33,906 bases of DNA, from positions 1 to 33,906 of the forward strand of contig JAZSHN010000097.1 in the NCBI GenBank assembly GCA_045533315.1, in the 5' to 3' direction. Made by a program: the position numbers and the translations under genes. This stretch comes from Eubacteriales bacterium. GTDB taxonomy: Bacteria > Bacillota > Clostridia > Oscillospirales > CAG-272. Below the pieces are notes generated by a model. That model saw nothing but the letters and a program-made list of their open reading frames with translations. It did no database searches and was not told where the DNA came from. How positions within the stretch are numbered: the stretch's first letter is position 1; every line of letters starts with the position of its first letter. Below, in pieces: positions 5,653 through 31,224 of the stretch.

Positions 5653-8600
5653 TTAAACAACCTCGGTAAGCGTCTGGTTTGAATACTGCCAAACGATAGC
5701 GCCGTCAACCTCAGCCTGCTTTATCGTATAGGTCTTTCCGCCCGCTTTGATGATGAACTGGGGCAGCTGACCGTCCTTGATATAGGTTCTTATAATCTCC
5801 GCATCCGACGCTGCACCGCCGTCAACCGAAACGGTTGCCGTTGCGCCGATGATATTGCCGCTTGCATCCTTTTCAAGGTTAAGGGTAATGACGTAGGTCT
5901 TGCCGCTATATACGCAGGTCCAGCTTCCCTCAAGAGAGGGCTCGACGGGTGCTATGAAGTTAGCGTACATATTTTTGTTTGCCGTTACCGTAGCGGTAAA
6001 GTCGAAATAGGTAGAGCCGTTACCGGATGAAAACCAATCGCCGGAGTAGTAAGAGCCTTCAACGGTCATAAGCTCCGCAGCAAGAGCCGCAAGCGCATCC
6101 GCGGATACGGTATCAGACTCTACGCCCGTCAGCTCCTTCGAGATAACCTGTGCAAAGGTCTTTCCGTATTCTACGGGAACCTCTTTATAAATCGATCCGT
6201 CCTGCTTGTAAATTTTAAGGAGCTTATCAACGCCCTTCCATTTTGCGTCGAGGATAATATCGGCGGTTACGGGAGAGGAGAAATCGTACTCGTTATCGCC
6301 GAGATACCAGCCGAGGAAGTCGTAATTGCTACGGGTGGGAGTGCCAAGCGCGGAGAGTGCCTGACCGTCCGCAACGGAATATGTGCTTGCAGCTCCAGTA
6401 AGCTTACCGCCGTTAAGATTAACGGTTACGGTATGCGTGGTGACCTCCCTCCATTTTGCAACGAGGGTGATATCGGCGGTTACGGGAGAGGAAAAATCGT
6501 ATTTGTTATCGCCAAGATACCAGCCTTCAAATGCGAAGCCAACCTTTTCGGGAGCCTCGGGAGCATCAACCGCTTCACCGTTACCTACGGAGACGGTCGT
6601 GGTCGCATCGCCGTTATCGGGGTCAAAGGTTACGGTAAGGTTGCCCGCCTTTTGGATAACGAGAGCGCTCGAGGAGGTACCCGTTGCCATAGAGCCTGTT
6701 TCGGTGTTGTATGTAAACGCAAGAGATTTGGTTTCGGAAGTAGAGGTATAATTAACGACAAGCTTAAGAGCATTGCTCAAGGTCTGATATCTGAACCAAT
6801 TTACCGTAAGCGCCTCGCTTCCGAGGGTAACGGTAACGGTATTTTGAGCCGCATCGATTTCTATCGTCCAATCGCCCTTGCTGTCGGTTCCCGTCCAAGT
6901 GCCCTCTATATCATTCATCGAATAAACGATACCGGGATAGCACTTCTTGTCACTTTCTACCGCCTTATTAACTACGTCGTTAACGATGTTGGAGGTTGCA
7001 GAGCTATACCAGAGGCCGTTAAAGATTGCTCCCTCGGTGATTACCATACCTGTTGCGGGAACATCCTCCGCGGGTACGGTTTCACCGTGGTTAACGAGAA
7101 CCTCCTTAAGAACGGTGCCGTCCTCCTTATAGAAGGTTACGGTGTAGGTTTTAACCTTCCACTTTGCAACGAGGGTGATGTCGCCCGTAATGGGAGCTTC
7201 AAGATCGAAGAGAACGCCGTCAAGATACCAGCCCTCAATCTCGTGACCCGACCAGCTCTTTGAAGGTTCTTTTGCGGCATCGCCGTGCTTTACGGTTACA
7301 AGCTTCGGATCGGTCGGCTCCTTGTAGTCGCCCCAATCAAAGGTAACGGTGTAATTTCTGTAAAGAACAAGCTCGGTGCTCATTGCTCCCTCGGAGGTGG
7401 TAAGAATGCCCTTGTCCGCGGATACGGTGAATACCATATCCTTTCCTTCGGTAGCGCCCGCGGTATAGTTAACGGTAAGCACGCCGTCCTCGTACAAAAC
7501 GTAGTTTACGGTCATTGTAACGTCGGTGTAGCCCGAGTTGTAGGTTGCGGTAATAACGCCGTTGGCGGCAATAACGAACTCATACTCGGTGGTGGTGTAC
7601 ATAACCTGCTCCTCGCCCGTCCAGATGCCCGCAAGCTCGGTAAGGTCGGGAAGGTCAAGCTCCCACTCTGCAACAAGAGTGATAGCCTCGGTTACGGGAG
7701 TGTCAAAGTCGTATGCAGCACCGTCAAGATACCAGCCGACGAATTTAAATCCCGTCTTTTCGGGTGCGAGAAGGGGTGCGCTTGCGGTGAAGCCCGCGCC
7801 AACCGTTTGTGCGGTGCTTTCTGTTCCGTTGTCGGCATCAAAGGTTACGGTAATAGCCTCAACCCACTTTGCAGTGATGGTGATAGTGCCTGTAACGGGG
7901 GCATCGAAATCGTATTCGGCATCGCCAACGAACCAACCGACAAATACGAAGCCCTCGTTTACGGGCTCCTCGTTGGGAGCAACAACAACAGAGCCGTGGG
8001 AAACGGCTTCGGTTTCGTTCTCCGTACCGTTCTGTGCATCAAAGATTACGTTGTAGACGTTGAGAGTCCAGCTCGCCTTAAGAGTGATAGCACCGGTAAC
8101 GGGCGTCTCAAAGTTATAGGCGGCATCGCCAAGAAGCCAGCCCGCGAAGGTATAGCCCTCCTTTTCGGGAGCAGCGGGTGCAACGGCGAGAGAGCCGTGG
8201 GAAACGGTCTGCTCGGTGCTTTCGGTACCGTTGTCAGCATCAAAGGTCACAACGTACTCGTTAAGAGTCCACTTTGCCTTGAGCGTGATGTCGGAGGTAA
8301 CGAGAGTCTCAAAATTGTAAGCTGTATCACCGAGGAACCAGCCCGCAAAGGTGTAGCCCTCCTTTTCGGGAGCAGCGGGCGCGGAAACCGCAAAGCCGTG
8401 GGTAATACCCTGCTCCGTCGGGGTCGTGCCGTTGTCAGCATCAAAGGTTACGGTGTAGTCGTTGAGAGTCCACTTTGCCTTAAGGGTAACGTCCGCGGTA
8501 ACCGCGGTCTCAAAGTCGTAGGCGGTTTCACCAAGGAACCAGCCCGCGAAGGTGTAGCCCTCCTTTTCGGGAGCAGTGGGCTTCGTTGCCTTTTCTCCCG

Positions 8601-8733
8601 AGGCTACGGTCTGTGCCGCAACGGCAGTGCCGCCGTCGGCATCAAAGGTCACGGTAAAGCTCTTTTCCTTGCATCCTGTAACGGCAAGGAGAGTCAATGC
8701 GACCAGAAGTACAGCTATAAGTATCTTTTTCAT
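5653..8733 (-). CDS. Surface lipoprotein built from about 9 Listeria-Bacteroides (Flg_new) repeats interleaved with three 'EGxWTG' beta-rich modules
   Basis: The track ORF begins at a TTG (8748). The ATG at 8733 (MKKILIAVLLVALTLLAVTGC, lipobox VTGC) has GGAGGA 7 nt upstream. The repeating motif is 'TVTFDADNGT...APEKEGYTFAGWFLGDTAYNFET.VT.DITLKAKW'. Confidence 0.9.
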   Translation of the reverse strand: MKKILIAVLLVALTLLAVTGCKEKSFTVTFDADGGTAVAAQTVASGEKATKPTAPEKEGYTFAGWFLGETAYDFETAVTADVTLKAKWTLNDYTVTFDADNGTTPTEQGITHGFAVSAPAAPEKEGYTFAGWFLGDTAYNFETLVTSDITLKAKWTLNEYVVTFDADNGTESTEQTVSHGSLAVAPAAPEKEGYTFAGWLLGDAAYNFETPVTGAITLKASWTLNVYNVIFDAQNGTENETEAVSHGSVVVAPNEEPVNEGFVFVGWFVGDAEYDFDAPVTGTITITAKWVEAITVTFDADNGTESTAQTVGAGFTASAPLLAPEKTGFKFVGWYLDGAAYDFDTPVTEAITLVAEWELDLPDLTELAGIWTGEEQVMYTTTEYEFVIAANGVITATYNSGYTDVTMTVNYVLYEDGVLTVNYTAGATEGKDMVFTVSADKGILTTSEGAMSTELVLYRNYTVTFDWGDYKEPTDPKLVTVKHGDAAKEPSKSWSGHEIEGWYLDGVLFDLEAPITGDITLVAKWKVKTYTVTFYKEDGTVLKEVLVNHGETVPAEDVPATGMVITEGAIFNGLWYSSATSNIVNDVVNKAVESDKKCYPGIVYSMNDIEGTWTGTDSKGDWTIEIDAAQNTVTVTLGSEALTVNWFRYQTLSNALKLVVNYTSTSETKSLAFTYNTETGSMATGTSSSALVIQKAGNLTVTFDPDNGDATTTVSVGNGEAVDAPEAPEKVGFAFEGWYLGDNKYDFSSPVTADITLVAKWREVTTHTVTVNLNGGKLTGAASTYSVADGQALSALGTPTRSNYDFLGWYLGDNEYDFSSPVTADIILDAKWKGVDKLLKIYKQDGSIYKEVPVEYGKTFAQVISKELTGVESDTVSADALAALAAELMTVEGSYYSGDWFSSGNGSTYFDFTATVTANKNMYANFIAPVEPSLEGSWTCVYSGKTYVITLNLEKDASGNIIGATATVSVDGGAASDAEIIRTYIKDGQLPQFIIKAGGKTYTIKQAEVDGAIVWQYSNQTLTEVV
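7654..8658 (-). repeat. Five tandem 201-nt (67-aa) coding repeats, each one Flg_new module
   Basis: ORF-track residues 31-365 form five head-to-tail 67-aa units with high mutual identity. The period is also visible as paired out-of-frame 65-aa ORFs at 8046-8243 and 8247-8444 with near-identical sequences. Confidence 0.85.
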
Positions 8734-8819
8734 AGCATTTTCCTCCAAAAAGATTTGTATTTTTTATAAGCTTTCACTGAATAAAAAATCATTTCAATTA
8801 TCCAAAAAGGATATTATAT

Positions 8820-8848
8820 ATTGTATAACTACATTGCGAATTTGTCAA
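8820..8848 (-). promoter_or_regulatory. Sigma-A type promoter for the Flg_new lipoprotein gene
   Basis: Minus strand reads TTGACA-aattcgcaatgtagtta-TACAAT with a 17-nt spacer, in an AT-rich 220-nt gap ~87 nt upstream of the ATG at 8733. Confidence 0.6.
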
Positions 8849-8968
8849 GAGCTTTTCGTCAAAAAAATGAATTTTTATTCCTTTTTTATTATACTATTAA
8901 GAAAATCGGCAAATAAAGCACATTTTTAAGACTTTAAAAGCTTTTTACGCTTTTTTAATCCGACCGAG

Positions 8969-11900
8969 CTATGCAAGAAGCTGCTCCGCTTTATTCACAT
9001 AAAATGAATAAATATTCACAAGACACTGAAAGTCCTCGCCGTCCTGTGCGGGAAGGTCACCGTACATAGTCGTCACCTCGGAAAGGAGGCTTGCTACGGT
9101 TTCGAGGGTGATGCTGCTCTCGGATACCTCGTAGGTATATATCGCGGTTTCAAGGGCAAAGAGCTTCATCGCAAGCTCCGCCGCCCGTTCCGTAAACGTC
9201 TCCGAGATGAACAGCTCGAGCGCGGCTCCGTACATATTCACCCCGCCCTCCAGCGTGTAGAACAACGCCTTTTCGCTTGAGTCAAGCGACTTGAATGCCT
9301 CAAGCACGGCAAGAACGGTGTCCTTATCAAATACGGGCTGTCCGTCGGATTTGTTAATATATGCGCTTGCCATACCGTAATAAAGCGAAAGGAAATCATC
9401 CATTTTGCGGTCGTAATAAACGTCGTAGATGCTTACGCTGTCGGCTCCGAAGCCGAGAAGCGTTTCTATATAGACAGTCGTGCGGTAGAGGTTAAGCGTG
9501 TAATCGCAGGACCAAAGGATTTTTTCCGTTCCGTCGGAATATGCCTCGAAAAGCGGCTCGTGGTAATACGCATATATTACCTCCGCGGGAGCATCGCCGT
9601 TGAGTATGCTGTCCCTGATGTCCGCAGCTCTTTCGTAGGATGCGAGGAAATAATTATAATTCGCAAGCTCGCCCGACTGCAAAAGGTGGGCTGCAGTGTG
9701 CAAATCCTTTAAAGCGAGAAGCAGAGCGTTGAAGCATTCCGCCCCGTTGCCAAGCTCGGTGCCGATTTCAAGATTGTCGCGTATTTTCGAATATTTGTCG
9801 TACGCGGTAAGCAAATAGGCTTCAAAAAATTCCTCGGCTTCGGTGCCAAGCTGCTTTTTTGCAGAGGTAACCGCATCCATTCGTGCGATAAAATCGTTTT
9901 CCCATTCGCCGTAATCGAATCGGTTGGCATAAACCTCCATTGCAAGAACGAGGTTGTCGTAAATATCCGAAGCCTCGCCAAGCCCGTTACGCATAAAGCC
10001 GCCGAGGGTGACGGTAAAGAAATCAGCATAGACGGCATACTTATCCTCCTTGTCAAAGACAAGCTCGGGTGCGCCGTGTCGGTACAGCATATTGAGGGTT
10101 GCCAAAAGATTATACTGCTCCACGGGGGCAAGATTTACAAATCGGTTAAACAACGCCCCGAGAGCTGCGGCATATTCCGCAGAGCCCTCAAAGCCCTCCG
10201 TATCTATACAGCTTCCGATAAACGCGACGTAGTCTTTTATAAAGGCATCGTAAACGGCATCCTCCGAAAGTCCAAATGTAACGCTTAACACCGCAGCTCT
10301 TATCTGCTCGAGCAGGTCGTCAAAGCTTACGCTGACCGAGGAGTCAATTCCAAAAAGAAGATTTGCCGAAGCGTTAAGGTAGAAATATTTTTCCGCCTCG
10401 CTTTCTCCGCACTTTACCGACTCCGCGGCATCCCGTGCCGCATAATAATTATAAAGGAGCTTTGTCGTATCGAGATATTTGAGTCCGTTAAGGTCGTCAA
10501 TCGCCAACAGCGCGGTGAGGGTGTGCGCGTAGAAGTCGCGAACCTTGGTGGGCAATCCGTAAATCATAAGCGATTTCATTGCATCCTTTTCATCCGCCTC
10601 GTAAAGATACGTGTAAAGCATATCGAAAAGGTCGTCGCCCTCGCGCCACTCGGATACAAGATAATATATATCGGGATATTCAAGCACATAGCCCTCGCTG
10701 AATATTGTAAGGACTGCCTGCCTTAACGCGTCGTGATGCTCGGTTATTCCAACGGTTTTCCAATCGTCGGGTATTTCACTTACAAGGTCGTAAAGCTTTA
10801 ACGTATGACGGAGCAGCGACTCCATCGAGGCAAGCTCGTAGCTATCCATAACGGGATAGGTATTAAAGTATATCCGTGTGGTTTCGTTTTCGTAAATAAC
10901 CCTGTCACCGTACATATCTATAAGCTCAAGAAGCAGGGGCGCGAGGGTATATATGGGACTGTCCTTATCCTCAAACAGCAGGAGCGAGTCGGAAACCCCC
11001 TCATAGCTTTCAAGATAGAGGACGCGCTCTCCGTATTCGATGGCAAACACACCCCTAAACTGTCGGATATTATCGCCCCAAAGCTCAAAGCCGTATACCA
11101 TCGCGGCGCGAGCAACGTTAAATACGGTTTGCTCGTCAAGCAAAATTTTCTCGGATGCGGGCATATCCATATATGCGTTCATAAGACGGATTGCAAGCTC
11201 GCCGTCGCTCTCGCCGATTTGCGGCTCTGTATCCGAATTCCAATTTATGAGATTGAACGGCTCGCTGTTTTCCCTGAACAGGGATACGCTCGTATAGGTA
11301 AGCTGTACCTCGTACTCGTACCTCGCTCCGTTAAAGCTAACGGTGAGAATTTGAGTGTCCGAGGGATTTTCCTCATTAACAATTGAAAGGTCAAGACCCG
11401 AAATCATATCCGACGTAATGGGAATTTCCCTTCTGATTTGACCGCCGTTGCCTTTTATTACAAATCTTCCGCCCGAGGCATCTGCCTTTCCCTCGTAATG
11501 GCTTCCGTAGGTGATTTTATTCGGTCTGTAAAAGTCAACCGCTTCAACCGCGTAGATTTTGACGGTCAAATCTCCCTCAAGCCTTTCGCCGTTTCTCGTA
11601 TACGCAACCTTAAGCTGCAGCGAGTCGTTTGCCGCCGAGGAGTCAAAGCCGTCAACGGTAACGTTATTCGCGGAAAGCTGTACGGTTTTGGTGCTTCCGT
11701 CGTATTCGGTTATTTTCAGAACTCCGCGGCTTTTGTCAAAGGAATCGCCGACAAGATAATCGGTAACCGCACCGTTTACCGCAAGGCGGGGGTTTACTGT
11801 AACCGTAACCTCGGTATACGCGCCGCCGTATTCTATTCTGACGGTCTGTTTTCCGATTTTATTGCCGTCGTATCCCGAAACGGTAACGTCCTTTGAATTG

Positions 11901-12106
11901 AGAGGGACCTCGACAACCTTTTTCCCTGTGTTGACCGTAAGGACGGAATCCGAGAGGTTGAGCTCCTGTCCCTTTACGTAAACCGTTTGAAAGCCTCCGT
12001 CCGTGTCAAGGGAGACCGACTCTGCCTTTACGGAGCATGACGCGGCGAAAATCAAAAGCGAAAGTGCCGCCGCAATTAACAACAAAAATTTAATGCTTTT
12101 TTTCAT
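8969..12106 (-). CDS. Lipoprotein with three N-terminal bacterial Ig-like domains and a ~780-aa Tyr/Leu-rich all-helical region of unknown family
   Basis: 1045 aa. Signal and lipobox are MKKSIKFLLLIAAALSLLIFAASC. The Big_3-like motif is 'VTVSGYDGNKIGKQTVRIEYGGAYTEVTVTV'. I recognise nothing in the remainder. It starts 33 nt after the upstream LRR gene stop. Confidence 0.85.
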   Translation of the reverse strand: MKKSIKFLLLIAAALSLLIFAASCSVKAESVSLDTDGGFQTVYVKGQELNLSDSVLTVNTGKKVVEVPLNSKDVTVSGYDGNKIGKQTVRIEYGGAYTEVTVTVNPRLAVNGAVTDYLVGDSFDKSRGVLKITEYDGSTKTVQLSANNVTVDGFDSSAANDSLQLKVAYTRNGERLEGDLTVKIYAVEAVDFYRPNKITYGSHYEGKADASGGRFVIKGNGGQIRREIPITSDMISGLDLSIVNEENPSDTQILTVSFNGARYEYEVQLTYTSVSLFRENSEPFNLINWNSDTEPQIGESDGELAIRLMNAYMDMPASEKILLDEQTVFNVARAAMVYGFELWGDNIRQFRGVFAIEYGERVLYLESYEGVSDSLLLFEDKDSPIYTLAPLLLELIDMYGDRVIYENETTRIYFNTYPVMDSYELASMESLLRHTLKLYDLVSEIPDDWKTVGITEHHDALRQAVLTIFSEGYVLEYPDIYYLVSEWREGDDLFDMLYTYLYEADEKDAMKSLMIYGLPTKVRDFYAHTLTALLAIDDLNGLKYLDTTKLLYNYYAARDAAESVKCGESEAEKYFYLNASANLLFGIDSSVSVSFDDLLEQIRAAVLSVTFGLSEDAVYDAFIKDYVAFIGSCIDTEGFEGSAEYAAALGALFNRFVNLAPVEQYNLLATLNMLYRHGAPELVFDKEDKYAVYADFFTVTLGGFMRNGLGEASDIYDNLVLAMEVYANRFDYGEWENDFIARMDAVTSAKKQLGTEAEEFFEAYLLTAYDKYSKIRDNLEIGTELGNGAECFNALLLALKDLHTAAHLLQSGELANYNYFLASYERAADIRDSILNGDAPAEVIYAYYHEPLFEAYSDGTEKILWSCDYTLNLYRTTVYIETLLGFGADSVSIYDVYYDRKMDDFLSLYYGMASAYINKSDGQPVFDKDTVLAVLEAFKSLDSSEKALFYTLEGGVNMYGAALELFISETFTERAAELAMKLFALETAIYTYEVSESSITLETVASLLSEVTTMYGDLPAQDGEDFQCLVNIYSFYVNKAEQLLA

Positions 12107-12139
12107 AACAAGCCTTTTCCTTGTAGCTTTTACTCATAA

Positions 12140-17689: not shown

Positions 17690-18157
17690 TTAATAATTCT
17701 TTTTGATTTCCAGCAGCCACTCCGCAAACATAAGAGTGACAAGTGCCATCGCAAAATAAAGCAATGCGTCACGGTATTCGGTAATATAGAGCTCCTCCGC
17801 CTCTGTAAACGGGAGAGCCTCCACCGTTTTGGTCGTGTCCGATTCGGAGGCGGGAATTTTTACGAAAAAGCTTTCCTCGGGCAGCTCCTTTCCGCCGACC
17901 GTTGTCTGCGTCAGGGTGTATGTTGCGGGGCGGGTGGGGACAAATTCGCCGCTTGCGCCCTTGTATATCTCCTCTCTGCCGTCGCCCGACACCGTAAGCG
18001 TATCGCCCCTGCCGTTAAGACTTATGCTCTCCCCGACCTCAAAGACGTTGCCGCCGAGGGCTTCGGGAACGAAATAACCGAACATATTTAAAATCAAGGT
18101 TGAAAAATCGGGCAAGGCAATAAGGTTTGAATAATTCAGGTCAAACGCCCAAACCAC
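17690..18157 (-). CDS. C-terminal fragment, ending in a TM helix, of the BatA_N/VWA-like gene interrupted by an in-frame TAA
   Basis: 155-aa ORF in the same frame as 18179-19591, separated from it only by TAA (18179-18181) plus 7 sense codons. Its 'start' is a GTG with no properly spaced RBS. It ends 'ALLYFAMALVTLMFAEWLL', the C-terminal anchor expected for the full-length protein. Confidence 0.6.
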   Translation of the reverse strand: MVWAFDLNYSNLIALPDFSTLILNMFGYFVPEALGGNVFEVGESISLNGRGDTLTVSGDGREEIYKGASGEFVPTRPATYTLTQTTVGGKELPEESFFVKIPASESDTTKTVEALPFTEAEELYITEYRDALLYFAMALVTLMFAEWLLEIKKNY

Positions 18158-18178
18158 AACCCTTGCTTCGGGGGTACT

Positions 18179-20664: not shown

Positions 20665-20746
20665 CTATATGTTCCTTAACGAATTGAATTTCAAGGTTGA
20701 TTTCAAATTTAAATCGCCATAAAAGGCAAAGAGCTCTAAAGCCTTC

Positions 20747-20809
20747 AAAAGCCGAAAATTGCTTGTAAAGAGCCGAAAATTGCTTGTAAAAAGCCGAAAA
20801 TTGCTTGTA
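20747..20809 (-). repeat. Three perfect-period 21-bp tandem repeats in the 300-nt gap upstream of the 342-aa gene
   Basis: Plus-strand units are aaaagccgaaaattgcttgta / aagagccgaaaattgcttgta / aaaagccgaaaattgcttgta at 20747-67, 20768-88 and 20789-809. There is one substitution in the middle unit. Confidence 0.9.
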
Positions 20810-20964
20810 GACTCTGCATTGGGTGCGCTGTAAGGGGCAAATGCACCCGCCCCGTTGGGGGAGACCCGCAAAGAGCGAGCCTCCCTTTTGTTTTGGGGTT
20901 ATTCACGCGCTTTTTCGCCGTCATCGGCGTTGCGCAAACGGGCTTGCGGTCATCGGACCGCCGT

Positions 20965-23900: not shown

Positions 23901-26900
23901 AAACAAGCTCGCCCAAATCCGCGGTATAAAGCACACCGCCACTGACCGTGTAGGGGCAGCCCTGCTCGCAGCCTATATCCGAGAGGGAGCGCGCACCGTA
24001 AAATACCAGCGCGCCGTTTGCGAGGGGCGGGATAACCGAGCCGTCCGCGCTTACGTAGGACGAAAGCCTTGCGGGTAATTTGATTGACGTGAGCTGCGAC
24101 TGGTTTTCAAAGGCACCGTAGCCTATCGTCAAGGGATAGGAATTAAAATCGGTAAGGAAGGTGATTTCGGTAAGCCTTCCGACGGATACCGCAAATGCGT
24201 AATCACCGATACCGAGTCGGTTGTAAAGCGAGCCGTATTCCTCTATCGGCTCAAGATTTCGGACGGTTGCGGGAACGGTAAAGCTCACAAGCTGCGACTT
24301 GTAGAAGCAGAACGCACCGATTGTTGCGAGCCTCGAATCGGCAGGCAGGCTTACCCTGAAGCCGAAATCACCCGATTTTGTAAAGCAATAATCCCCGAGT
24401 GCGATGACGTTGGGCGAAAGGCTGACCTCCGTAAGCCGTGTACAGGAGGCAAAGACGTTGCCCCTTTCGACAGAGAACATCTCCACCCCGTCGCTTTCGT
24501 ATTTTCTGCGATATGCCGTACCGATTGTAAGGTCGGGCGAATCATCCGTTCCAAGAAAGCTTACGGTGGTAAGCATCTGACAGTTTTCAAAGGCACGCGC
24601 ACCGATGGTATGTACCGAGGCGGGAATCTCAAGCGTGCTTATCGGCACCTGATAGGTATATGCGGATGCGGCAAAAGCGTATGCACCGATTACCTCAAGA
24701 GAGACGGGGAGCGTCAGCTCTGCAAGGTTATAGCACTCGTAGAAGGCATAGTTACCGATGCTCTTTACCGAATCGGGAATAATCGCGGAGGTTATTTTTG
24801 CATTTTTGTAAAAGGCAAAGTCGCCGATTGAGGTAAGCGCAGAGCCTTCCGCGGTGAATTTTACGTCCATAAAGCGATGTGCGGTGACGTAAGACGTGCT
24901 TAACGTTTCGCCCGAGAAGCAATATTCGCCGATTGACACAACGCTCGCAGGTATGACGAGCGCCGCGCCGTTGTCGTTGCTCGGATTATAAAAGGCATAG
25001 CTTCCGATAGACTCAAGACCGTCGTTTAAAAGAATTTTTTTGTAGAAAACTTCGGCAAAGGCATAATCGCCGATTGATTTTGTATGCGGGGGGAGAGTGA
25101 AGTCGTATCCCTCAAACCTCGCCCCTTCAAATGCGGATTTGGCGATAACAAGCTCGTCGGCATATACGTCGCCCATAAACACAATTCGGTCTATGTCCGT
25201 GTTCTTGAATGCCTCCTCTCCAATGTAGGAAACCGTGTTGGGGATAACGAGCGCGGTGAGCGACCTGTTGCCCGCAAACACTCCCGCCGCGACAGAGGTA
25301 ACGGTATCGGGAATTGCGTATTCACCGCCCTTTCCCTGCGGGAAATATATAATTTCGGTTTTATCCTTGTTAAAGACAACGCCGCCCTGGCTTGTGAAAT
25401 AGGGGTTGTTTTTATCAACCTTTACCTCCTTTAGGGAGGTACAACCGCCGAATATACCGGGAATAACCGACACGTTGGCGGGTATATTTACCGTTGTAAG
25501 GGCGGTACAGCCGCCAAACACGCCTTTACCGAATTCAAGCGCCCTTTTTCCACCCTCGAAGCTCACACTTTCAAGCCCCTTGCAATTCTCGAATGCGCCG
25601 TCCCTGATTAAGACGACCGACGACGTTATAGTAAAGCCCTTAAGAGAGGTACAATTGAGAAAAGCTCTCTCGCCGATAACCGAAATCTGACTGCCCTCCT
25701 CAAACATAACCTCCGAGAGGGAGGTGCAATTCGCAAATGCCCTGTCACCCACGGTAACCGAGCTGAAGCCCATTCCCTTAAAGGTAAGCTTGCCGATTTG
25801 AATTGCCGAGAAGGCGTATTCTCCGATATATGTTACCGTATTCGGAATAACAATCTCGGTTATGAGGTCACAGCCGACAAAGGCACCCGATGCAATAGAC
25901 TGTGTACCCGGGGCAATGTTAACAACACCGCGCTTTGCCGTGGGACAGTATATAAGCTGCCCTCCGTCTGCGGAATATATCATTCCGTCAACGACGCTGT
26001 AATAGTGAGAGCCGCTTGCCACCTTTACCGATTCGAGAGCCGTACAGCCGACAAAGGCATAATCCGCACTCTCGCAAAAGGCTCCGCTTGAATTGAGATA
26101 GTATTTGCTCAAATCCAAGGAAGAAAGGCGAGTGGGGAGGGTTATATTTTCAAGAGCCGTACAGAATGCAAAGGCTCTTTTTCCGATGGAAAGCTCCTTT
26201 TCGGTATCGCCGCGCGAGAGCGCAAAGGCTACCGTTTTCAAAGAGGCGGCACGGTTAAAGGCATCGTTTCCGATTTTTGTAACGTCGGCAGATACGGTAA
26301 CCGAAGCAAGAGCCGAGTCTGTGAACGCTCCCTCCGCTATTTCACCGATTCCGTCGGGGATAACGTAGCTCCCCGTTCTGCCCGCGGGCATTCTCAAGAT
26401 GGCTGCGCCCGTGGACCTGTTCTCTATGAGAACGCCGCCCTCCGATTTGTATTTCGGAGAGCCTACACCCTCGACCGCATACACGTTTATGTCGGTGAGC
26501 GACGAGCAGCCCGCAAAGGGGTCAAGCCCCGAAATCACCTCCACCGTCGCGGGAATGCTTACCGTTTTAAGACCGATACAGCCCGCAAAAGCTCCGCCGT
26601 CAATCATCGCAACAGGCAGGCCGTTATGGTAGGCGGGCACGGTAACCTCCGCAACAAGCGAAATTCTCGGACCCATAGATACGGCGTAGGCATCACGTCC
26701 GTTAACCTTTACCTTGTTAAAGACGAGCGTTTCGTCTATCCAAAAGGCGTAAAGCTCCTTTCCGCCGACGGTATTCCACGGAATAAGACTGTTTCCAAGG
26801 GGGTCGGTGTACTGTGTACCCTTTCCGTACGGTGCCTCGAACCATCCTCCGAAGGATAGGGTGACTTCATTCGCCACGGGGATTTCAAGAGTATAGTCGC

Positions 26901-29286
26901 TTCCGTATTCGACAGTGCCGTTAGCTCCGCCGCCCGTACCGCCAAGTCCGTAATTGTATACTATTTCGTATTTTTCGGGGAGGTAATATGCGTAAAGCGT
27001 GATGCTTTCCTTGATTTCAAAGAACTGCTCGTCAATTCTTTTGCCGTTTGCGGCAGCTCCGCCCGGAACGTTATACCAATCCAAGAAACGGTAGCCCGCC
27101 CTTTCGGTAAGCGGAAGGGATATTTTATCTCCCGTTGCCAAGTATACGGTATTCACCGCGGTGCCTCCGAGGGTATCGAATACAACGGAATGGGCAACAA
27201 CCGAAATTTGCGTCCATTCCGAAGCGCCCTCACCGTTAACAAAGCGAAGCTTTATTATGTTTTCACCCGCTTGCGTGAGGGGGAGCTTTACAAGGGTCGC
27301 ACCCCTTACCTCCTCTGCGGGGAAATCGTTTATCTTAATTTCGTAATAATCCGCCTCTATAACGCAGTCCCAATAAAGCACACCGTCGGAATAGGTCGGC
27401 TCTGTGCCCACAAATCCGCTGTGACACACTATGGGTGCGGACCACGCCGATGCCGTATCTCCCACGGCACGGATTTTAATTTCATAGGAATTTCCGTTTT
27501 CTATATTGACAATTGCGGAGAGGTCAAGGCTGTTCCCCGCAGCCGAGTAGATGCTTCCGTTAACCGAAAGCTCGTAGCCGACGGCTTCGTCAACCTCCGC
27601 CCAGGTGATGAGCGCTCCGTTAACCGAGAGTCCGTCGGGGGTGGGGATTGTCACCTTTCTTACCGTTGTTTTTGAGGGTGCGGGGGATAGATATCCCTCC
27701 GCAACGGGATAAACGCTTACGCCGATTTCGCCGGCACGACAGCACCCGAGGTCAAGGGTGACGGTGGCACCGTTGATTTTAAGCAGGTGGTTGTGGCTTT
27801 CTCCGCAGTCGACGCTTACCGTATAAAAATCCGCATTTTCAACCGAATTCCAGGTTAAAACCGAGTCCTCGCCGTTCCAATTGAAGCCATCAACGGCGGA
27901 AAGCTCCCGCTTATAAATAAGCTCGTCGGAAACCGAGGTCAAAAATCCGTCGGCAACCGCCTTTACAGTAAATTTTATTCCGTCCTTCGCCATAGGACAG
28001 TTAGCAAAGCTAAAGGTTCTTGAGCTTCCGTTATCGACGTCGGTGTGAATGTGATTTTCATTGCCGCAGACCACGGTGACGAGATAACGCTCTGCTCCGT
28101 CGACGCCGTCGTAGACAAGAAAGCTTCCGTCCGAAACGAAAAGTCCGCCAACCTTATCAAGTCCCTTGTTGACGTATGTATAATACGCCTCCGAATTGTC
28201 CTCCGCAGCGGTGCTTGCGTTGGCAACGACCTTTACGGAGAAAACGCCCGCGGGGTAGTCCGCAAACGGAATATCGATTTCAGAGTTGCTTACCGATTTG
28301 GATAAAAGCACGCTTCCTCCCGCATCGGTTACGGTTACGTCGTAAGAACGAGCGCCCGATACCGCACCCCAGGAAACGCCGCCCGCAGAAACGGTAAGCG
28401 AGGGGGGCAGAAGCACAGTGCTTTCGGTCGAATACCAAAGGGCGTATACGGTTGTGCTTGAGGTAATAACGACGTCCTCGCTCAACCGATAGGAGAGTCT
28501 TTCCGCATTGTTATCCGTGCTTATCCACCAGCCGTTGAAGACAAAGCCGCTTCTTTCGGGTATGGGGGCGTCGAAAATCCTGCCTCCGATTGTCGGAATA
28601 GCAGCAAAGGCTTCGCCGTCGGTATATCCGACGTCAAAGGACACGGTATATTCGCGTAAGCCGTTATCGTCTATCCACCTTGCATAAAGGGTCAGGTCGG
28701 AGGTAACTATGTCCGAGGCAAAGGTAAACGGCAGCTTGAATTCGCTGTCCATATACCAACCGACAAAGAGGTAATTTTCCTTGACGGGGTCGGCGGGCTT
28801 TTTAACGGTCTGTCCGTTGGTAACGGTCACGGCGGCAAGCTTGCTTCCGCCGTCGGTTTCAAAGCTTACGGTATAGTCAACCCTTCTGAAAAGGCGCAAG
28901 GCAGCACCGTTATAGCTTAAGGTCACGGTGGCATTTTCATATACCGCAACGATGCTTTTTTCGCCATCCTTGTCAAAATCAAGAGTAATCGACGAGCCCT
29001 CAAGTCGGTAGTCGCCCGTAAGCGATAGCCCGTCGAGGACGAAAAGAAATTTTCCGGTTTCCTTTAAGGTAAGCTCGCACTCGCCCCCGCCGATGCTATA
29101 ATAGCTACCGACAGCCGAGGGGTCAAACCTTTCCTTCGGGCGGTTTGTGCGAAGCAGCGAGGATATAATAAGCACCGCGGCAACGGCAAGCGCCGCAACG
29201 GCGAGAAAAACAGCCGCAATCAGAATTATTTTTCTTTTGCTTGCTGTCGAATCCTCTGAATTCCTGTTTTTTATTGGATTTCCCAT
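20965..29286 (-). CDS. Giant (~2773-2777 aa) N-terminally anchored surface protein: 5 Flg_new + ~5 Fn3-like + ~1700 aa BspA-type LRR + PPC-like C-terminal domain
   Basis: A single uninterrupted ORF. The track start is a GTG at 29298. The ATG at 29286 (MGNPIK) has GGAG 11 nt upstream. The TM helix is 'IILIAAVFLAVAALAVAAVLIISSLL'. Flg_new motifs include 'ENYLFVGWYMDSEF...DLTLYARW'. Fn3-like segments read 'VSWGAVSGARSYDVTV'. LRR_5 units of the type 'IP.SV..IG..AF..C..L' run from roughly nt 21619 to 26646. The C-terminus 'NYFKLTAAAGDVWNI...GTYFIGVGY' looks like a pre-peptidase C-terminal (PPC) beta-sandwich. Confidence 0.92.
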   Translation of the reverse strand: MGNPIKNRNSEDSTASKRKIILIAAVFLAVAALAVAAVLIISSLLRTNRPKERFDPSAVGSYYSIGGGECELTLKETGKFLFVLDGLSLTGDYRLEGSSITLDFDKDGEKSIVAVYENATVTLSYNGAALRLFRRVDYTVSFETDGGSKLAAVTVTNGQTVKKPADPVKENYLFVGWYMDSEFKLPFTFASDIVTSDLTLYARWIDDNGLREYTVSFDVGYTDGEAFAAIPTIGGRIFDAPIPERSGFVFNGWWISTDNNAERLSYRLSEDVVITSSTTVYALWYSTESTVLLPPSLTVSAGGVSWGAVSGARSYDVTVTDAGGSVLLSKSVSNSEIDIPFADYPAGVFSVKVVANASTAAEDNSEAYYTYVNKGLDKVGGLFVSDGSFLVYDGVDGAERYLVTVVCGNENHIHTDVDNGSSRTFSFANCPMAKDGIKFTVKAVADGFLTSVSDELIYKRELSAVDGFNWNGEDSVLTWNSVENADFYTVSVDCGESHNHLLKINGATVTLDLGCCRAGEIGVSVYPVAEGYLSPAPSKTTVRKVTIPTPDGLSVNGALITWAEVDEAVGYELSVNGSIYSAAGNSLDLSAIVNIENGNSYEIKIRAVGDTASAWSAPIVCHSGFVGTEPTYSDGVLYWDCVIEADYYEIKINDFPAEEVRGATLVKLPLTQAGENIIKLRFVNGEGASEWTQISVVAHSVVFDTLGGTAVNTVYLATGDKISLPLTERAGYRFLDWYNVPGGAAANGKRIDEQFFEIKESITLYAYYLPEKYEIVYNYGLGGTGGGANGTVEYGSDYTLEIPVANEVTLSFGGWFEAPYGKGTQYTDPLGNSLIPWNTVGGKELYAFWIDETLVFNKVKVNGRDAYAVSMGPRISLVAEVTVPAYHNGLPVAMIDGGAFAGCIGLKTVSIPATVEVISGLDPFAGCSSLTDINVYAVEGVGSPKYKSEGGVLIENRSTGAAILRMPAGRTGSYVIPDGIGEIAEGAFTDSALASVTVSADVTKIGNDAFNRAASLKTVAFALSRGDTEKELSIGKRAFAFCTALENITLPTRLSSLDLSKYYLNSSGAFCESADYAFVGCTALESVKVASGSHYYSVVDGMIYSADGGQLIYCPTAKRGVVNIAPGTQSIASGAFVGCDLITEIVIPNTVTYIGEYAFSAIQIGKLTFKGMGFSSVTVGDRAFANCTSLSEVMFEEGSQISVIGERAFLNCTSLKGFTITSSVVLIRDGAFENCKGLESVSFEGGKRALEFGKGVFGGCTALTTVNIPANVSVIPGIFGGCTSLKEVKVDKNNPYFTSQGGVVFNKDKTEIIYFPQGKGGEYAIPDTVTSVAAGVFAGNRSLTALVIPNTVSYIGEEAFKNTDIDRIVFMGDVYADELVIAKSAFEGARFEGYDFTLPPHTKSIGDYAFAEVFYKKILLNDGLESIGSYAFYNPSNDNGAALVIPASVVSIGEYCFSGETLSTSYVTAHRFMDVKFTAEGSALTSIGDFAFYKNAKITSAIIPDSVKSIGNYAFYECYNLAELTLPVSLEVIGAYAFAASAYTYQVPISTLEIPASVHTIGARAFENCQMLTTVSFLGTDDSPDLTIGTAYRRKYESDGVEMFSVERGNVFASCTRLTEVSLSPNVIALGDYCFTKSGDFGFRVSLPADSRLATIGAFCFYKSQLVSFTVPATVRNLEPIEEYGSLYNRLGIGDYAFAVSVGRLTEITFLTDFNSYPLTIGYGAFENQSQLTSIKLPARLSSYVSADGSVIPPLANGALVFYGARSLSDIGCEQGCPYTVSGGVLYTADLGELVYCPTSLSADVVIPSSVTRIQDYAFFGCNGVSSVTFAGKSNLSYIGDYAFYGASAIESITLPSGVGSLGEGAFNNASSLLGITLSKNLESLDISVFDGCTALKNIYVPSENAGLCSENGVLYSKDKTVLLLYPYGRTDAEYTVNSEALSIGAGAFAGNESLHTVFLPSGLVEIGERAFEGCSALTAVTIPVSVEIIGDGAFSNTLSLESLLFAEGEGKKLVIGDGAFGGSGVGAVKLPARLAYIGNDAFRNSKLALLSFESAEVYQLSAIGGYAFAGTPLVAVILPSGITTVGDGVFYGAARLESLVFGEGLEAIGKEAFKGSSVKTVHLPASLKTLGASAFYGCSQLQSVSFASGSQLEAIPAGCFYGCTSLKSFSVPTLVRELGGAKDNGAFEGCKALSEFGFEGDDFCTVIGDYAFRGCSSLVGFGIPSTVGTLGNFAFADCSSLSEIVIHRGTVKLGEGTFAGCTSLSRVEMNTGSDRLPERMFEGCTSLTHIFIPSGVGEIGEDCFRGSSVEEFEVAEENRSLVSVDGIIYNASKTLIVYFPPKYASTTLFIPKEVVEIREGNFRYSTGIKEVIFEEGGTAALNIGSYAFDGCYQIRRVVLPERLVSIGSYAFRECYGLTSITIPRNVKTIGYAAFSKCAKLYEVYNESSIENITKDTYIDYININSYIGARVNIFTPTEGSSVIEREGEFLFTTVSGVKRLIGYEGDESVIRLPDGSYELAPYMFSMDTSVQAVIVPSGVTLQGSFMFDGCDNLRAILLMSEAIPDTWPNNWNNGHPVFVGYTGAEITYTFNTNGASAIEPVVSSNPIKLPTPSIDGKVFMGWYDNAELVGEPLPAEYYSSSKTELYAAYMDEAEYVEKYLRGQSMEYAHDLLGTATLAVDIRAKGTQNYFKLTAAAGDVWNIATPSGMGYHKIWIYDAYGNVILEYSSKTSDLIHDINYDFTFVKEGTYFIGVGYKDQSRESGSFEVTFTRV

Positions 29287-29342
29287 TCGGTAATACACTC
29301 CGTTTTTCTTTATGACGCGGTTGCGTCAATATTAACCAAAGG

Positions 29343-31166
29343 TTAATCGGTAACAGCCTCCGCAAAGGTCAGTCCCGCATTTTCCTTTGTATAGGATTCC
29401 ATATCCGCCTCTCCCATATCGAGAGCATACTCTGCATAGAGGGCGTCCCAATCCGTCTTTTCCACATCAACGGCGGTTCCGTTTTCCAGCTTGTAGTATC
29501 TCTCCACGAGGTCGGAGGAGTCGTACTCAACCCCGATTGCGGTCAGGCATTTAAGCTCTGTGCCATTGATTTCATAAACGAAATATTCGCTGTTGCTTTC
29601 ATTTCCCTCTATTATTCCTACCTTTACGTGAATGCGTCCGTCCGCATCGATAAACGCCCGTCTTACGTCGGTGTAGGAATCAAGAAGCGCGGGGCTCCCG
29701 TCAAGCTCTGTGAATATCGCGAGAACGGCGTAATTGCTGTCAAGGAGGATAAGCTCCTGTATTCCGTCCTTGTTAAGGTCCGCCCTTGCAAATCCGAATT
29801 TCGCGTTGCTGCTCGGCACAAGGGCACAGGCGGCAAAAATCCTGTTATAAATGACGAAATCAGCCTCCGAATTAAACCTCATACCCTCGTCGTAATCTCC
29901 CGCAATCCATTTGCTGCGAGTGAATTTTCCGCCCGCAGCCTCCGAAAGCATAAGACCAAAGGTCTTAATTATCGCATCGTAGGAGGAATAATCGGCAACG
30001 AGCGTTGTAACGAGCGAGGTTGTAAGTGCAGGATTGTAGGTAAGATTGTTAAGCTTTGTAAGTCGGGTGGGATTTTCCCAATAATAGGAATAATAGTCCC
30101 TGATTTCCTTATATTCCTCGTAGGTCAGAGAGGATTTGTTCCCGTCCCCGTCTACAATGTAATGAACGTCGTCGCCCTGTGTTGCATAGTCGGCATCCGA
30201 ATCCTCCCAGCCGTAGGAAATGCCAACAAGCCTTCCGCCCTCAAGACGGGTGATATGGTATCCGAGGAAGATTTGTCCTCCGTTAGAATCAAATTCCTTT
30301 GTGTTAAACAGCACAAGACCGTTCTGTCCGAGGTAGCCCATCCCCTGCTGAAAGGCTGCGACGGGTGTCGGAGTCTTGTCAACGAGAGTGAATATGGCGT
30401 AAAGGCTTTTCGTGCTTTCCGTCAAAAGCAGCTCAACGTATCCGTCCGAATCAAGGTCCATATAGGTGTAGCCAAACTTGTTATAGGGCTGGAATTGAGC
30501 AACAACCTCATAAAGAACGTCCACAAACGGAGGCTCGTCCGTTCCTCGGGGAGGAAGCTCCTCGTTCATATATTTATAAAGAACGAGGTATTGGTATTTT
30601 TCAACGACTTTGTTGTAGTATTCTCTTCCACCGTCGGCGGGAATATAATCCTCGTCAACCGCTGCACAATGGACGCATGCGCCCTCGAAGAAATAGTGCG
30701 TGCAGACAATTTCGCACTTTGCACAAACGCTGTCGACAAATACGTGACGGCAGGGAATGCCGCAGGTAACGCACGCCCCCTGCGAGTAGCTGTGCAGGCA
30801 AACGGTTTCGCATTCGGCACAAACACCGTCGGTAAAGGAGTGAGTGCAAATCTTTATACACTTGATACAAACGCCGTTTATGTAGCTGTGAGCACAGAGA
30901 GTGCCGCATTTCGAGCAGACCCCGTCGGTATAGCTGTGCTCGCAGGGCGGAATGTAATTCGGGTCGCTCTCTCCGCAAGAGGTGCAAGCCCCATCCGAAA
31001 ATGTGTGATTGCAGGGCGGAACATATCCCGGGTCCTTTTCCCCGCAAAGCTTACACGCACCGTCGGCAAACTCGTGCTTACACCCTTGGCAGGCGGCAAG
31101 CATTGCAGTAAGGAGAAGCACAACGGCAAAAAGACAAATCAATTTGTAGGCAAGCTGTTTTTTCAT
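29343..31166 (-). CDS. Lipoprotein with eight tandem Cys3-His modules followed by a domain with DxDxDG-type (FG-GAP/VCBS-like) motifs
   Basis: The track start at 31178 is a TTG. The ATG at 31166 (MKKQLAYKLICLFAVVLLLTAMLAAC, lipobox LAAC) has GAGGT 5 nt upstream. The repeats read 'C.H.(F/Y).(D/N)G.C..C'. Later motifs are 'YMDLDSDGYVELLL' and 'RADLNKDGIQELILL'. Confidence 0.88.
   Translation of the reverse strand: MKKQLAYKLICLFAVVLLLTAMLAACQGCKHEFADGACKLCGEKDPGYVPPCNHTFSDGACTSCGESDPNYIPPCEHSYTDGVCSKCGTLCAHSYINGVCIKCIKICTHSFTDGVCAECETVCLHSYSQGACVTCGIPCRHVFVDSVCAKCEIVCTHYFFEGACVHCAAVDEDYIPADGGREYYNKVVEKYQYLVLYKYMNEELPPRGTDEPPFVDVLYEVVAQFQPYNKFGYTYMDLDSDGYVELLLTESTKSLYAIFTLVDKTPTPVAAFQQGMGYLGQNGLVLFNTKEFDSNGGQIFLGYHITRLEGGRLVGISYGWEDSDADYATQGDDVHYIVDGDGNKSSLTYEEYKEIRDYYSYYWENPTRLTKLNNLTYNPALTTSLVTTLVADYSSYDAIIKTFGLMLSEAAGGKFTRSKWIAGDYDEGMRFNSEADFVIYNRIFAACALVPSSNAKFGFARADLNKDGIQELILLDSNYAVLAIFTELDGSPALLDSYTDVRRAFIDADGRIHVKVGIIEGNESNSEYFVYEINGTELKCLTAIGVEYDSSDLVERYYKLENGTAVDVEKTDWDALYAEYALDMGEADMESYTKENAGLTFAEAVTD
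30666..31082 (-). repeat. Coding tandem array of 8 Cys/His modules, two of 23 aa and six of 13-16 aa
   Basis: CKHEFADGACKLCG.. / CNHTFSDGACTSCG.. / CEHSYTDGVCSKCG / CAHSYINGVCIKC / CTHSFTDGVCAEC / CLHSYSQGACVTCG / CRHVFVDSVCAKC / CTHYFFEGACVHC. The spacing is invariant, C-x-H-x5-6-C-x2-C. Confidence 0.9.
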
Positions 31167-31195
31167 TTTGTACCTCAATAATTATAAATAAATGT

Positions 31196-31224
31196 ATTAT
31201 ATCACACACGCATAATTATGTCAA
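31196..31224 (-). promoter_or_regulatory. Sigma-A type promoter heading the surface-protein cluster
   Basis: Minus strand reads TTGACA-taattatgcgtgtgtga-TATAAT. Both hexamers are consensus, the spacer is 17 nt and the -10 is extended with TGn. The -10 box lies ~30 nt upstream of the ATG at 31166. Confidence 0.8.

Follow-up and report, generated by a model that had tools for sequence, protein, structure and literature searches.

The question raised by this locus is whether giant surface proteins and the VWA membrane proteins encoded among them belong to one apparatus, and what such an apparatus would do. The window, meaning the whole stretch of 33,906 nucleotides analyzed from a Eubacteriales bacterium, carries eight consecutive minus-strand envelope genes, one of them split by a TAA codon, with a 12/12 promoter ahead of them and a strong terminator at the end. 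An earlier note on this DNA had described the arrangement, and ORF and signal checks found its reading frames, their strand, and the bracketing promoter and terminator all as placed. The gaps, which it gave as mostly 12-66 nt with exceptions of 300 and 220 nt, were measured in gene order as 44, 300, 44, 21, 12, 66, 33, and 220 nt. The features are as follows:

31196..31224, minus strand: promoter, sigma-70-type with an extended -10 (TTGACA, 17 nt with TG, TATAAT; 12/12)
29343..31178, minus strand: p611 lipoprotein, 611 aa, lipobox LAAC, Cys-rich N-terminus
20965..29298, minus strand: giant surface protein, 2777 aa, N-terminal TM anchor, Flg_new and LRR_5
20665..20964, minus strand: intergenic region of 300 nt, 21-nt x3 tandem repeat and AT-rich element
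19636..20664, minus strand: p342, 342 aa, 3-TM, Flg_new_2
17690..19591, minus strand: BatA-type protein, BatA_N TM hairpin, VWA, C-terminal TM, TAA-interrupted
18179-19591 (470 aa) and 17690-18157 (155 aa), minus strand: the BatA ORFs, in the same frame, with the TAA at 18179-18181 between them
14963..17677, minus strand: double-VWA membrane protein, 904 aa, two VWA domains and GATase1_like
12140..14896, minus strand: LRR918, BspA-type LRR_5 lipoprotein, 918 aa, lipobox LAAC
8969..12106, minus strand: Ig/alpha-solenoid lipoprotein, 1045 aa, Big_3, AASC
8820..8848, minus strand: internal promoter in the 220-nt gap (TTGACA, 17 nt, TACAAT; 11/12)
5653..8748, minus strand: Flg_new x8 lipoprotein, 1031 aa, lipobox VTGC
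5578..5603, minus strand: intrinsic terminator, 10-bp stem with 9 GC pairs, then a T-tract

The upstream promoter is followed by GAGGT and then an ATG at 31166, and translation of the 611-aa and 1031-aa genes probably begins at the internal ATGs at 31166 and 8733, respectively. A single 25.5-kb transcript for the whole cluster is no more than a prediction. The 300-nt gap contains the 21-nt tandem repeat (20747-20809) as well as an AT-rich element 5' of the p342 start that is common to some relatives; because of the size of this gap and the hairpins that follow the giant gene in relatives, the region may be an attenuator or an internal promoter. Rfam and tRNA scans of the window returned no matches. 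A GC offset between the cluster and its flanks was not taken as evidence of transfer because it was not reproduced in relatives.

All products are envelope proteins, in agreement with the earlier description. The four proposed lipoproteins stand, with LAAC in the 611-aa and 918-aa proteins, VTGC in the 1031-aa protein, and AASC in the 1045-aa protein; this last motif is non-canonical, and its Cys24 is invariant across 31 homologs. The giant has a single N-terminal TM segment (residues 24-42), and p342, BatA, and the 904-aa protein have three TM segments each. Pfam supports LRR_5 in the two proteins for which it had been claimed, the giant (765.8 bits, 12 stretches) and the 918-aa protein (477.7 bits, 7 stretches), both of which combine tandem LRR_5 with an export or anchor signal (a TM anchor and a lipobox, respectively). 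Flg_new had been assigned to four proteins, and three of these pass the threshold: the 1031-aa protein (356.6 bits, 8 copies), the giant (134 bits, 4 stretches), and p342 (Flg_new_2, 28.6 bits). The fourth match, in the 918-aa protein, is weak (E = 0.017). The Fn3-like domains described in two proteins had no PF00041 match in Pfam, nor was there a match to PPC (PF04151), which had been listed for checking. The 1045-aa protein is made up of three Ig-like domains (Big_3) and an alpha-solenoid of ~770 aa; Foldseek of this protein found low-TM architectural likeness to nucleoporins and Ig-domain matches, with no enzyme fold. For p611, there was no match in Pfam, NCBIfam, or the PDB (searched by sequence) beyond faint FG-GAP matches (E = 0.014). 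NCBIfam gave no family-level name for any cluster protein, and scores against its adhesin models were far below the cut-offs. Three protein families are without annotation: p342, p611, and the 1045-aa protein's alpha-solenoid region. A model of sortase-assembled pili with VWA tip adhesins was rejected because sorting signals were not found: no cluster protein has an LPXTG-type motif within its final 60 aa, and the scanned cluster proteins contain no sortase Pfam domains.

The BatA_N and VWA assignments of the earlier note were all upheld by Pfam. The 470-aa part of BatA matches PF07584 (41.1 bits, cut-off 25.9) and PF13519 (VWA_2; 43.5 bits, cut-off 27). BatA has TM segments at 6-24, 65-83, and the C-terminus, and its cytoplasmic loop contains nine K/R residues and zero D/E. 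The 904-aa protein matches PF13519 (86.6 bits), PF00092 (71.8 bits), and GATase1_like, and has an N-terminal TM hairpin, a C-terminal TM segment, and a conserved basic tail; an exact-sequence lookup of this protein found no record. Membrane topology was assigned from hydropathy, the positive-inside rule, and one experimentally studied homolog. Experiments on the BatA-type protein BB0173 showed three TM helices, with the VWA domain located in the periplasm (PMC5700661). Of the MIDAS residues in the second VWA domain of the 904-aa protein, conservation is 100% for D448, S450, and S452 and no lower than 95% for T518 and D547. BatA D96 and S98 are ~100% conserved, and window-type BatA has a degenerate MIDAS, DASAG, in which the third residue is Gly. 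The third membrane protein, p342, is the marker of the system. It combines a conserved juxtamembrane helical domain in the cytoplasm with an Flg_new_2 domain outside the cell, and it also has an acidic linker that is disordered and a helical bundle at the C-terminus; both the cytoplasmic motif ARRxDRxGLEER... and a D..ADDLP-type motif in the linker are invariant in relatives. Foldseek found no significant whole-chain match for p342 in the PDB, the best being the Flg_new repeat structure 2kvz (E = 0.46).

Scanning with the 342-aa protein turned up relatives in 159 species-representative genomes, drawn from a broad set of gut Clostridia of humans, ruminants, rabbits, chickens, and mice, including one cultured species, Pumilibacter intestinalis. 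This family size is only a lower bound because multi-repeat Flg_new proteins overwhelmed a profile search based on the p342 alignment. At every locus with at least 9 kb of downstream sequence, BatA, the double-VWA gene, and an LRR918-type gene downstream of it are present (52/52 each), and MoxR and DUF58 occur at 46 and 45 of the 52, respectively. Of the 53 loci with 9 kb or more of upstream sequence, 43 have a collinear giant directly upstream of p342; the remaining ~10 carry another lipoprotein in its place. These giants, of 2,470-3,290 aa, align collinearly over ~2,500 aa at 27-43% identity, and the giant of the window is their ortholog. Gene order is kept from ~66% down to ~28% p342 identity, and the flanking genes differ among genomes, with complete turnover around the cluster. 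The main survey was conditioned on p342. When double-VWA homologs were instead picked regardless of p342, the same eight genes were found at 3/3 loci. Outgroups with BatA and the double-VWA protein but no LRR partners lie outside this sample, since the best 120 double-VWA homologs are all at least 49% identical. The linkage of VWA and LRR genes in relatives is the opposite of the pattern that the earlier note said would refute it, and an order conserved across differing neighborhoods, probed from both the p342 and double-VWA sides, bears out its view of the cluster as one functional unit.

The conserved unit is not the set of eight genes in the window, as had been assumed. The ancestral unit is reconstructed as the giant, p342, MoxR, DUF58, BatA, the double-VWA protein, the LRR_5 lipoprotein, and the Ig/alpha-solenoid lipoprotein; the last of these, which closes the unit, belongs to a family conserved over its full length. 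MoxR and DUF58 genes lie between the p342 gene and BatA at 65 of 75 informative related loci, and their products give AAA_3/bpMoxR and PF01882 Pfam matches, respectively. The window holds a derived copy in a paralogous clade that has lost both genes (tblastn for MoxR returned only noise, E ≥ 0.82, and there is no DUF58 gene) and that has gained two lipoproteins specific to its subclade: p611, with homologs only there, and the 1031-aa protein, which has its own promoter. This MoxR-less clade is monophyletic, with a MoxR-containing clade as its sister, and MoxR was lost at least four times independently. The apparatus, ~24 kb in length, can occur in two or three copies per genome, and loci duplicate with all components together. 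Four MoxR-less assemblies also hold a MoxR-containing locus, and the window-type clade presumably relies on the MoxR and DUF58 of another, complete locus within its genome. Where MoxR and DUF58 have been lost, BatA and the double-VWA protein are always kept, and the two diverge in step with each paralogous set of surface proteins.

The claim that this locus has no recognizable precedent is only partly correct, as its core is a module of the Bat/MoxR-proper (MRP) type. Such systems are made up of MoxR, DUF58, BatA, BatB, and BatC/D/E and are known from Bacteroides, Leptospira, Borrelia, and Francisella. As in Bat, a 3-TM protein with BatA_N and VWA is followed by a second VWA membrane protein (904 aa), most relatives have MoxR (AAA_3) and DUF58, likewise ordered, immediately upstream of BatA, the VWA domain is predicted to lie outside the cytoplasm, as in BB0173, and the accessory partners are repeat proteins suited to protein-protein interaction. 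Unlike Bat, the second VWA protein carries a pair of VWA domains and GATase1_like and lacks the TPR of BatB, the host is a monoderm, and the window's copy is without MoxR and DUF58. The giant BspA-type LRR/Flg_new protein, the LRR_5 and Ig/alpha-solenoid lipoproteins, and the new 3-TM p342 are likewise foreign to Bat. TPR, SH3, and BatD, which characterize the BatC/BatD/BatE accessories, had no Pfam match in the cluster proteins or the listed related loci, and the LRR, Flg_new, Ig, and alpha-solenoid surface proteins appear to replace them. Their strong LRR_5 matches and surface anchoring recall BspA-type proteins (Tannerella BspA, Treponema TpLRR/LrrA, and streptococcal HupY/LrrG), as their strong Flg_new matches and anchoring recall InlB B-repeat/Flg_new proteins. 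Both are known as stand-alone adhesins, whereas here the LRR orthologs are operon-locked with a MoxR-VWA module. The relatives also resemble NorQ/NorD, CbbQ/CbbO, and RavA/ViaA in pairing an AAA+ MoxR with a DUF58 partner, which we take to have a VWA-like fold. Those pairs are cytoplasmic and mature enzymes, whereas here the MIDAS-bearing VWA domains are predicted to face outward and the candidate targets are surface proteins. Integrins offer an analogy only, in their extracellular MIDAS VWA domains, short conserved basic cytoplasmic tails, and possible inside-out control; homology is limited to the VWA fold, and signaling is not in evidence here.

The best explanation, to which we give about an even chance, is a Bat-like MoxR-VWA system in which outward-facing, metal-binding VWA domains organize giant surface proteins. 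An N-terminal TM hairpin and a C-terminal TM helix would fix both BatA and the double-VWA protein in the membrane, with their MIDAS-bearing VWA domains displayed on its outer face. There, surface proteins tethered to the membrane would be held and organized by metal-dependent VWA contacts, forming a single adhesive assembly. Known MIDAS sites engage an acidic residue on their target, and MoxR hexamers work by way of a VWA partner (PMC9976466); it is plausible that MIDAS-based target recognition of the kind seen in MoxR/VWA chaperone pairs applies here (PMC9976466), with the acidic ADDLP-type motif of p342 as a candidate ligand. Cytoplasmic MoxR-DUF58 could power assembly or conformational switching by way of the conserved loops and tails that BatA, the double-VWA protein, and p342 have in the cytoplasm. 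An envelope complex has been proposed for the Bat proteins themselves (PMC3557215). Physical cooperation of the cluster proteins and a role in adhesion are what we infer from sequence. Against this explanation, MoxR and DUF58 are absent from the window, and its BatA has a degenerate MIDAS and is truncated by the TAA.

Alternatively, MoxR, DUF58, BatA, and the double-VWA protein could be a chaperone or quality-control system for the giant and its partner lipoproteins, serving their export, folding, or metal-loading and forming no structural part of the assembly. We consider this improbable overall, albeit the strongest competitor. The MoxR/VWA pairs studied to date serve as chaperones in the maturation of specific targets (PMC9976466, PMC3893208), one MoxR-vWA pair has been suggested to recruit substrates as a co-chaperone (PMC3495828), and the loss of MoxR/DUF58 at some loci while another is kept would suit a shareable catalytic factor. 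However, the co-divergence of BatA and the double-VWA protein with the surface proteins is that of specific partners, unlike a shared catalyst, and their large ectodomains with conserved MIDAS are permanently tethered to the membrane at both ends. A lower probability attaches to the idea that the VWA module and the LRR/Flg_new proteins serve distinct functions in the envelope and are neighbors through shared regulation or inheritance only. Internal promoters and intergenic hairpins permit separate transcription and the giant is missing from its upstream position at some loci, but the order withstands divergence and flank turnover, the LRR918-type gene is invariably in place, components duplicate jointly, and giant-less loci fill that position with another lipoprotein.

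It is equally doubtful that the window's copy is a decaying, non-functional paralog. The lack of MoxR and DUF58, the Gly in the BatA MIDAS, and an in-frame TAA where all relatives carry Lys or Arg are consistent with decay. Yet the remaining ORFs are intact, including the 8.3-kb ORF of the giant, as are the p342 cytoplasmic and linker motifs and the double-VWA MIDAS, and the MoxR-less clade is conserved in at least eight species with intact BatA of 632-645 aa. The TAA is a private, single-base nonsense change that could be an assembly or strain-level variant. Least probable by far is a vWA-MoxR conflict or defense system (such modules do occur in conflict systems; PMC7159879), rejected because PADLOC gave no match for any window protein and with no effector, nuclease, or protease domains found by Pfam, or an ATP-powered motility machine like the Mycoplasma Gli349/Gli521 legs, which shares the theme of giant surface proteins with a cytoplasmic ATPase, but for which the sub-threshold NCBIfam match of LRR918 to Gli349 (NF045861, 118.8 bits against a cut-off of 1750) is repeat-level, covering only the LRR segment, and cytoskeletal or motor components other than MoxR are lacking.

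Bat/MoxR-VWA operons are widespread. Their function "remains elusive" (PMC3557215), and no paper was found linking a MoxR-VWA module with these LRR/Flg_new surface proteins. The conserved cluster gives a first contextual clue to what Bat/MoxR-type modules act on. The module is tied tightly and repeatedly to defined, co-evolving surface proteins, which names candidate substrates or partners and therefore makes the question of Bat function testable, and a conserved ~24-kb surface apparatus is defined in poorly studied, uncultured gut Clostridia. A bolder and distinctly tentative extension, less probable than the explanation above, is a trans-membrane adhesion machine of monoderm gut bacteria, in which integrin-like MIDAS/VWA receptors would hold an LRR fiber of ~3,000 residues and its lipoproteins, switched or assembled from the cytoplasm by a MoxR AAA+ motor with DUF58 via p342 and the conserved cytoplasmic loops. 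If this were true, Bat-type MoxR-VWA operons would in general serve to assemble or regulate cell-surface protein complexes in an ATP-dependent manner.

The cluster is made up of nine successive minus-strand ORFs that run from 31178 to 5653 and are separated by gaps of 44, 300, 44, 21, 12, 66, 33, and 220 nt. ORF calling returned the same gene coordinates as the earlier, sequence-only note, whose promoter, internal promoter, and terminator were all recovered in place, as were its lipoboxes and TM segments, and Pfam agrees with its main domain calls (LRR_5, Flg_new, BatA_N, and VWA). The features of the cluster are:

31224-31196, minus strand: promoter, with a perfect TTGACA, 17 nt with extended TG, and TATAAT, then GAGGT and an ATG at 31166
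29343-31178, minus strand: p611, a 611-aa lipoprotein
20965-29298, minus strand: the giant, a 2777-aa surface protein; LRR_5 (765.8 bits, 12 stretches) and Flg_new (134 bits, 4 stretches)
19636-20664, minus strand: p342, a 342-aa 3-TM protein; Flg_new_2
17690-19591, minus strand: BatA, as 470-aa and 155-aa ORFs; BatA_N and VWA_2 in the 470-aa ORF
14963-17677, minus strand: double-VWA protein, 904 aa; two VWA domains and GATase1_like
minus strand: LRR918, a 918-aa lipoprotein; LRR_5 (477.7 bits)
minus strand: 1045-aa lipoprotein; Big_3
8848-8820, minus strand: internal promoter, 11 of 12 positions matched
minus strand: 1031-aa lipoprotein; Flg_new (356.6 bits, 8 stretches)
5603-5578, minus strand: terminator, a 10-bp stem with 9 GC pairs and a T-tract

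Flg_new had been assigned to four of these proteins, which stands for the giant, the 1031-aa protein, and p342 (as Flg_new_2), but the match in the 918-aa protein is only weak (E = 0.017). The Fn3 and PPC domains once proposed have no Pfam match in the cluster proteins. Sortase signals are also absent from these proteins, and so every component is anchored by a lipid or a TM helix. The 1045-aa protein has a non-canonical lipobox, AASC, but Cys24 shows no variation across 31 homologs. The predicted model of this protein (pLDDT 88.8) contains three Ig-like domains and an alpha-solenoid of ~770 aa, with no enzyme-like structural match. In p611, a Cys-rich stretch, CQGCKHEFADGACKLCGEKDPGYVPPCNH (CxxC...CxxC), begins at the lipobox Cys, and searches of Pfam, NCBIfam, and PDB returned nothing beyond faint FG-GAP and EF-hand-like matches at residues ~463-491 (E = 0.014).

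The 300-nt gap between the giant gene and p342 (20665-20964) contains exactly three copies of a 21-nt unit, AAAAGCCGAAAATTGCTTGTA (plus strand), at 20747-20809 with a 95% match. This repeat is absent from close relatives, which have GC-rich hairpins past the stop of the giant; the window shares with some of them an AT-rich element, TTGAAAATTCATTGG..CCAATTT..TAAGGAATAT, directly before the p342 start. An operator, attenuator, or promoter function is possible for the gap element. The cluster has a GC of 0.51 and a GC3 of 0.57-0.59 (5653-31178) against 0.44 and 0.47-0.53 in the left flank (1-5500), an offset not found in the related loci L086-L088 or L002. At 242-1400, 1572-3616, and 3792-5004 the flanks hold unremarkable genes, namely a split chromate-transporter pair, TrkA, TrkH, a 207-aa ORF without a Pfam match, and a TetR-family regulator adjoining the cluster terminator. 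A divergent 594-aa subtilase (31978-33762, plus strand; Peptidase_S8 and PA domain) has its own 11/12 promoter at 31958-31986 and a GC3 of 0.60, nearer to the cluster than to the left flank.

The p342 family forms 64 clusters at 90% identity; with clustering at 50% identity, at least about 55 of the representatives among the top 150 matches of a profile search are full-length. A 57%-identical relative lies in the window's gene order, and relatives at 34-38% identity lie in that order plus MoxR (AAA_3) and DUF58 genes between p342 and BatA. A scan of species-representative genomes gave 159 with a p342 relative, and 80 loci were kept; most carriers are MAGs, and one that can be cultivated is Pumilibacter intestinalis CLA-AA-M10. 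By tblastn, among loci selected on p342, the coupling that the earlier note had read from a single contig recurs throughout: BatA, the double-VWA protein, and an LRR918-type gene are each present in 52/52 loci with at least 9 kb downstream, MoxR in 46 and DUF58 in 45 of the 52, and a giant of at least 1,500 aa lies directly upstream in 43 of the 53 loci with at least 9 kb upstream. Genes flanking the cluster are different in every genome. In the reverse direction, three of three double-VWA homologs picked irrespective of p342 show the identical eight-gene arrangement; the homolog search with this protein stayed short of outgroups.

Distant giants can be aligned collinearly with that of the window across ~2,500 residues (27-43% identity), variation being confined to the final ~200 aa, and the giants of related loci are true orthologs. 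The 1045-aa protein belongs to a full-length family of 1,035-1,130 aa (26-61% identity). Window-type relatives, which lack MoxR and DUF58, continue 3' of its gene with a gap of ~210-230 nt, a Flg_new protein, and then unrelated genes, and MoxR-containing loci stop directly after the Big_3 gene. The conserved unit is therefore giant, p342, MoxR, DUF58, BatA, double-VWA protein, LRR_5 lipoprotein, and Ig/solenoid lipoprotein. Of the eight genes first grouped together, the BatA/double-VWA/LRR coupling is conserved, whereas the lipoproteins of 611 and 1031 aa occur as additions only in the window's subclade.

Loci without an upstream giant have a lipoprotein of ~287-294 aa immediately 5' of p342 (L028 5002-5865, L029 9090-9959, L060 9087-9971, and L075 9119-9982). 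L029 and L072 have a Flg_new/LRR-like lipoprotein after the LRR_5 gene. The sister clade with MoxR has a conserved ORF of ~84-104 aa (p84; L002 1474-1728, also L013, L014, L019, L021, and L022) directly upstream of the giant, where p611 sits in the window clade. Two complete Clostridia-type loci under proteobacterial labels, L058 (Parasutterella excrementihominis) and L068 (Acidiphilium sp.), are probably mis-binned or mislabelled.

Like Bat operons, the window system has BatA and a second VWA protein, and its relatives also have MoxR and DUF58; unlike them, it is without BatC, BatD, and BatE. Literature searches found no paper naming MoxR together with BspA, Flg_new, or LRR_5, in keeping with the earlier note, which knew of no described system coupling the two sets, and the surface-protein partner set of this VWA module has not been described before.

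MoxR and DUF58 were not found in the window (tblastn, only noise at E <= 10). Among the 80 kept loci, MoxR occurs in 65 and p342 leads directly to BatA in 10. When BatA sequences are arranged in a neighbour-joining tree, the window groups with L006-L012 in a single MoxR-less clade whose sister clade contains MoxR. L036, L071, and L084, also MoxR-less, fall singly within MoxR-containing clades; these positions imply at least four independent losses. The window's copy is a derived paralog. For four MoxR-less assemblies (JAZUPL, SVTB, JAZNZC, and SVLC), the 80 loci include a complete one as well, which suggests that supply of MoxR/DUF58 in trans is possible.

The topology of BatA recurs in the double-VWA protein: TM hairpin, large domain, and C-terminal TM. 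The hairpin loop of BatA is very strongly conserved, with 9 K/R and no D/E, which places the VWA domain outside; the same topology was shown experimentally for Borrelia BB0173 (PMC5700661). The BatA MIDAS reads DASAS in most loci and DASAG in the window clade. The double-VWA protein has a fully conserved MIDAS in its second VWA (D448, S450, and S452 at 100%, T518 and D547 at 95% or above); in the first, D80 is 100% conserved, S82 87%, and S84 85%. For the cytoplasmic tail of this protein, AxRKFK, conservation is at least 95%. The N-terminal part of p342 (AF2 model, pLDDT 73) is made up of a TM hairpin, a helical cytoplasmic domain of ~45 aa with an invariant ARRxDRxGLEER motif, and a third TM helix. 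Next come the Flg_new_2 beta-domain and a disordered, acidic linker in which D254, D258, and P260 are invariant, and a helical bundle forms the C-terminus. As a whole p342 matches no PDB fold. The cytoplasmic motif is still invariant within the MoxR-less clade.

In Pfam, DUF58 is assigned to the vWA-like clan. A partner is bound at a MIDAS site through an acidic residue, and hexamers of MoxR work via a VWA-type adaptor (PMC9976466). For Bat proteins an envelope complex has been proposed, their function being unknown (PMC3557215). In the present system, outward-facing VWA domains would organise the surface proteins into a single adhesive assembly, the acidic motif of p342 being a candidate MIDAS ligand, and MoxR/DUF58 may act from inside via the conserved cytoplasmic elements.

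A chaperone role of the module in biogenesis only is plausible; what weakens it is that duplication and divergence of BatA and the double-VWA protein always involve their surface partners as well. Decay of the window copy is possible for BatA, a single gene that an in-frame TAA (18179-18181) divides into ORFs of 470 and 155 aa. In 12/12 relatives examined, BatA is intact at 627-662 aa and has Lys or Arg (AAA, AAG, or CGN) at the aligned codon; the stop is therefore either an assembly error or a nonsense change of one base, private to the window. The remainder of the cluster is intact, however, and the MoxR-less clade is conserved. Mere co-location of the VWA module and surface-protein genes is hard to square with a gene order kept despite complete turnover of flanking genes. 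Defence or motility readings found no support in the PADLOC and NCBIfam searches.

These data show a conserved, co-evolving unit, putatively at the operon level, in which a Bat-type MoxR-VWA module is coupled to giant LRR/Flg_new surface proteins. Across loci, MoxR keeps 65-97% identity and the exposed proteins only ~25-70% (L002 being the reference for MoxR and DUF58 and the window for the other proteins), a pattern consistent with rapid evolution of the surface components around a conserved motor. Several assemblies contain the whole locus as two or three paralogs (L006+L024, L010+L026, L011+L022, L047+L071+L081, L029+L072, and L041+L065), ~30-60% identical to each other and each with its own giant, and these copies point to a multi-copy, diversifying surface apparatus.
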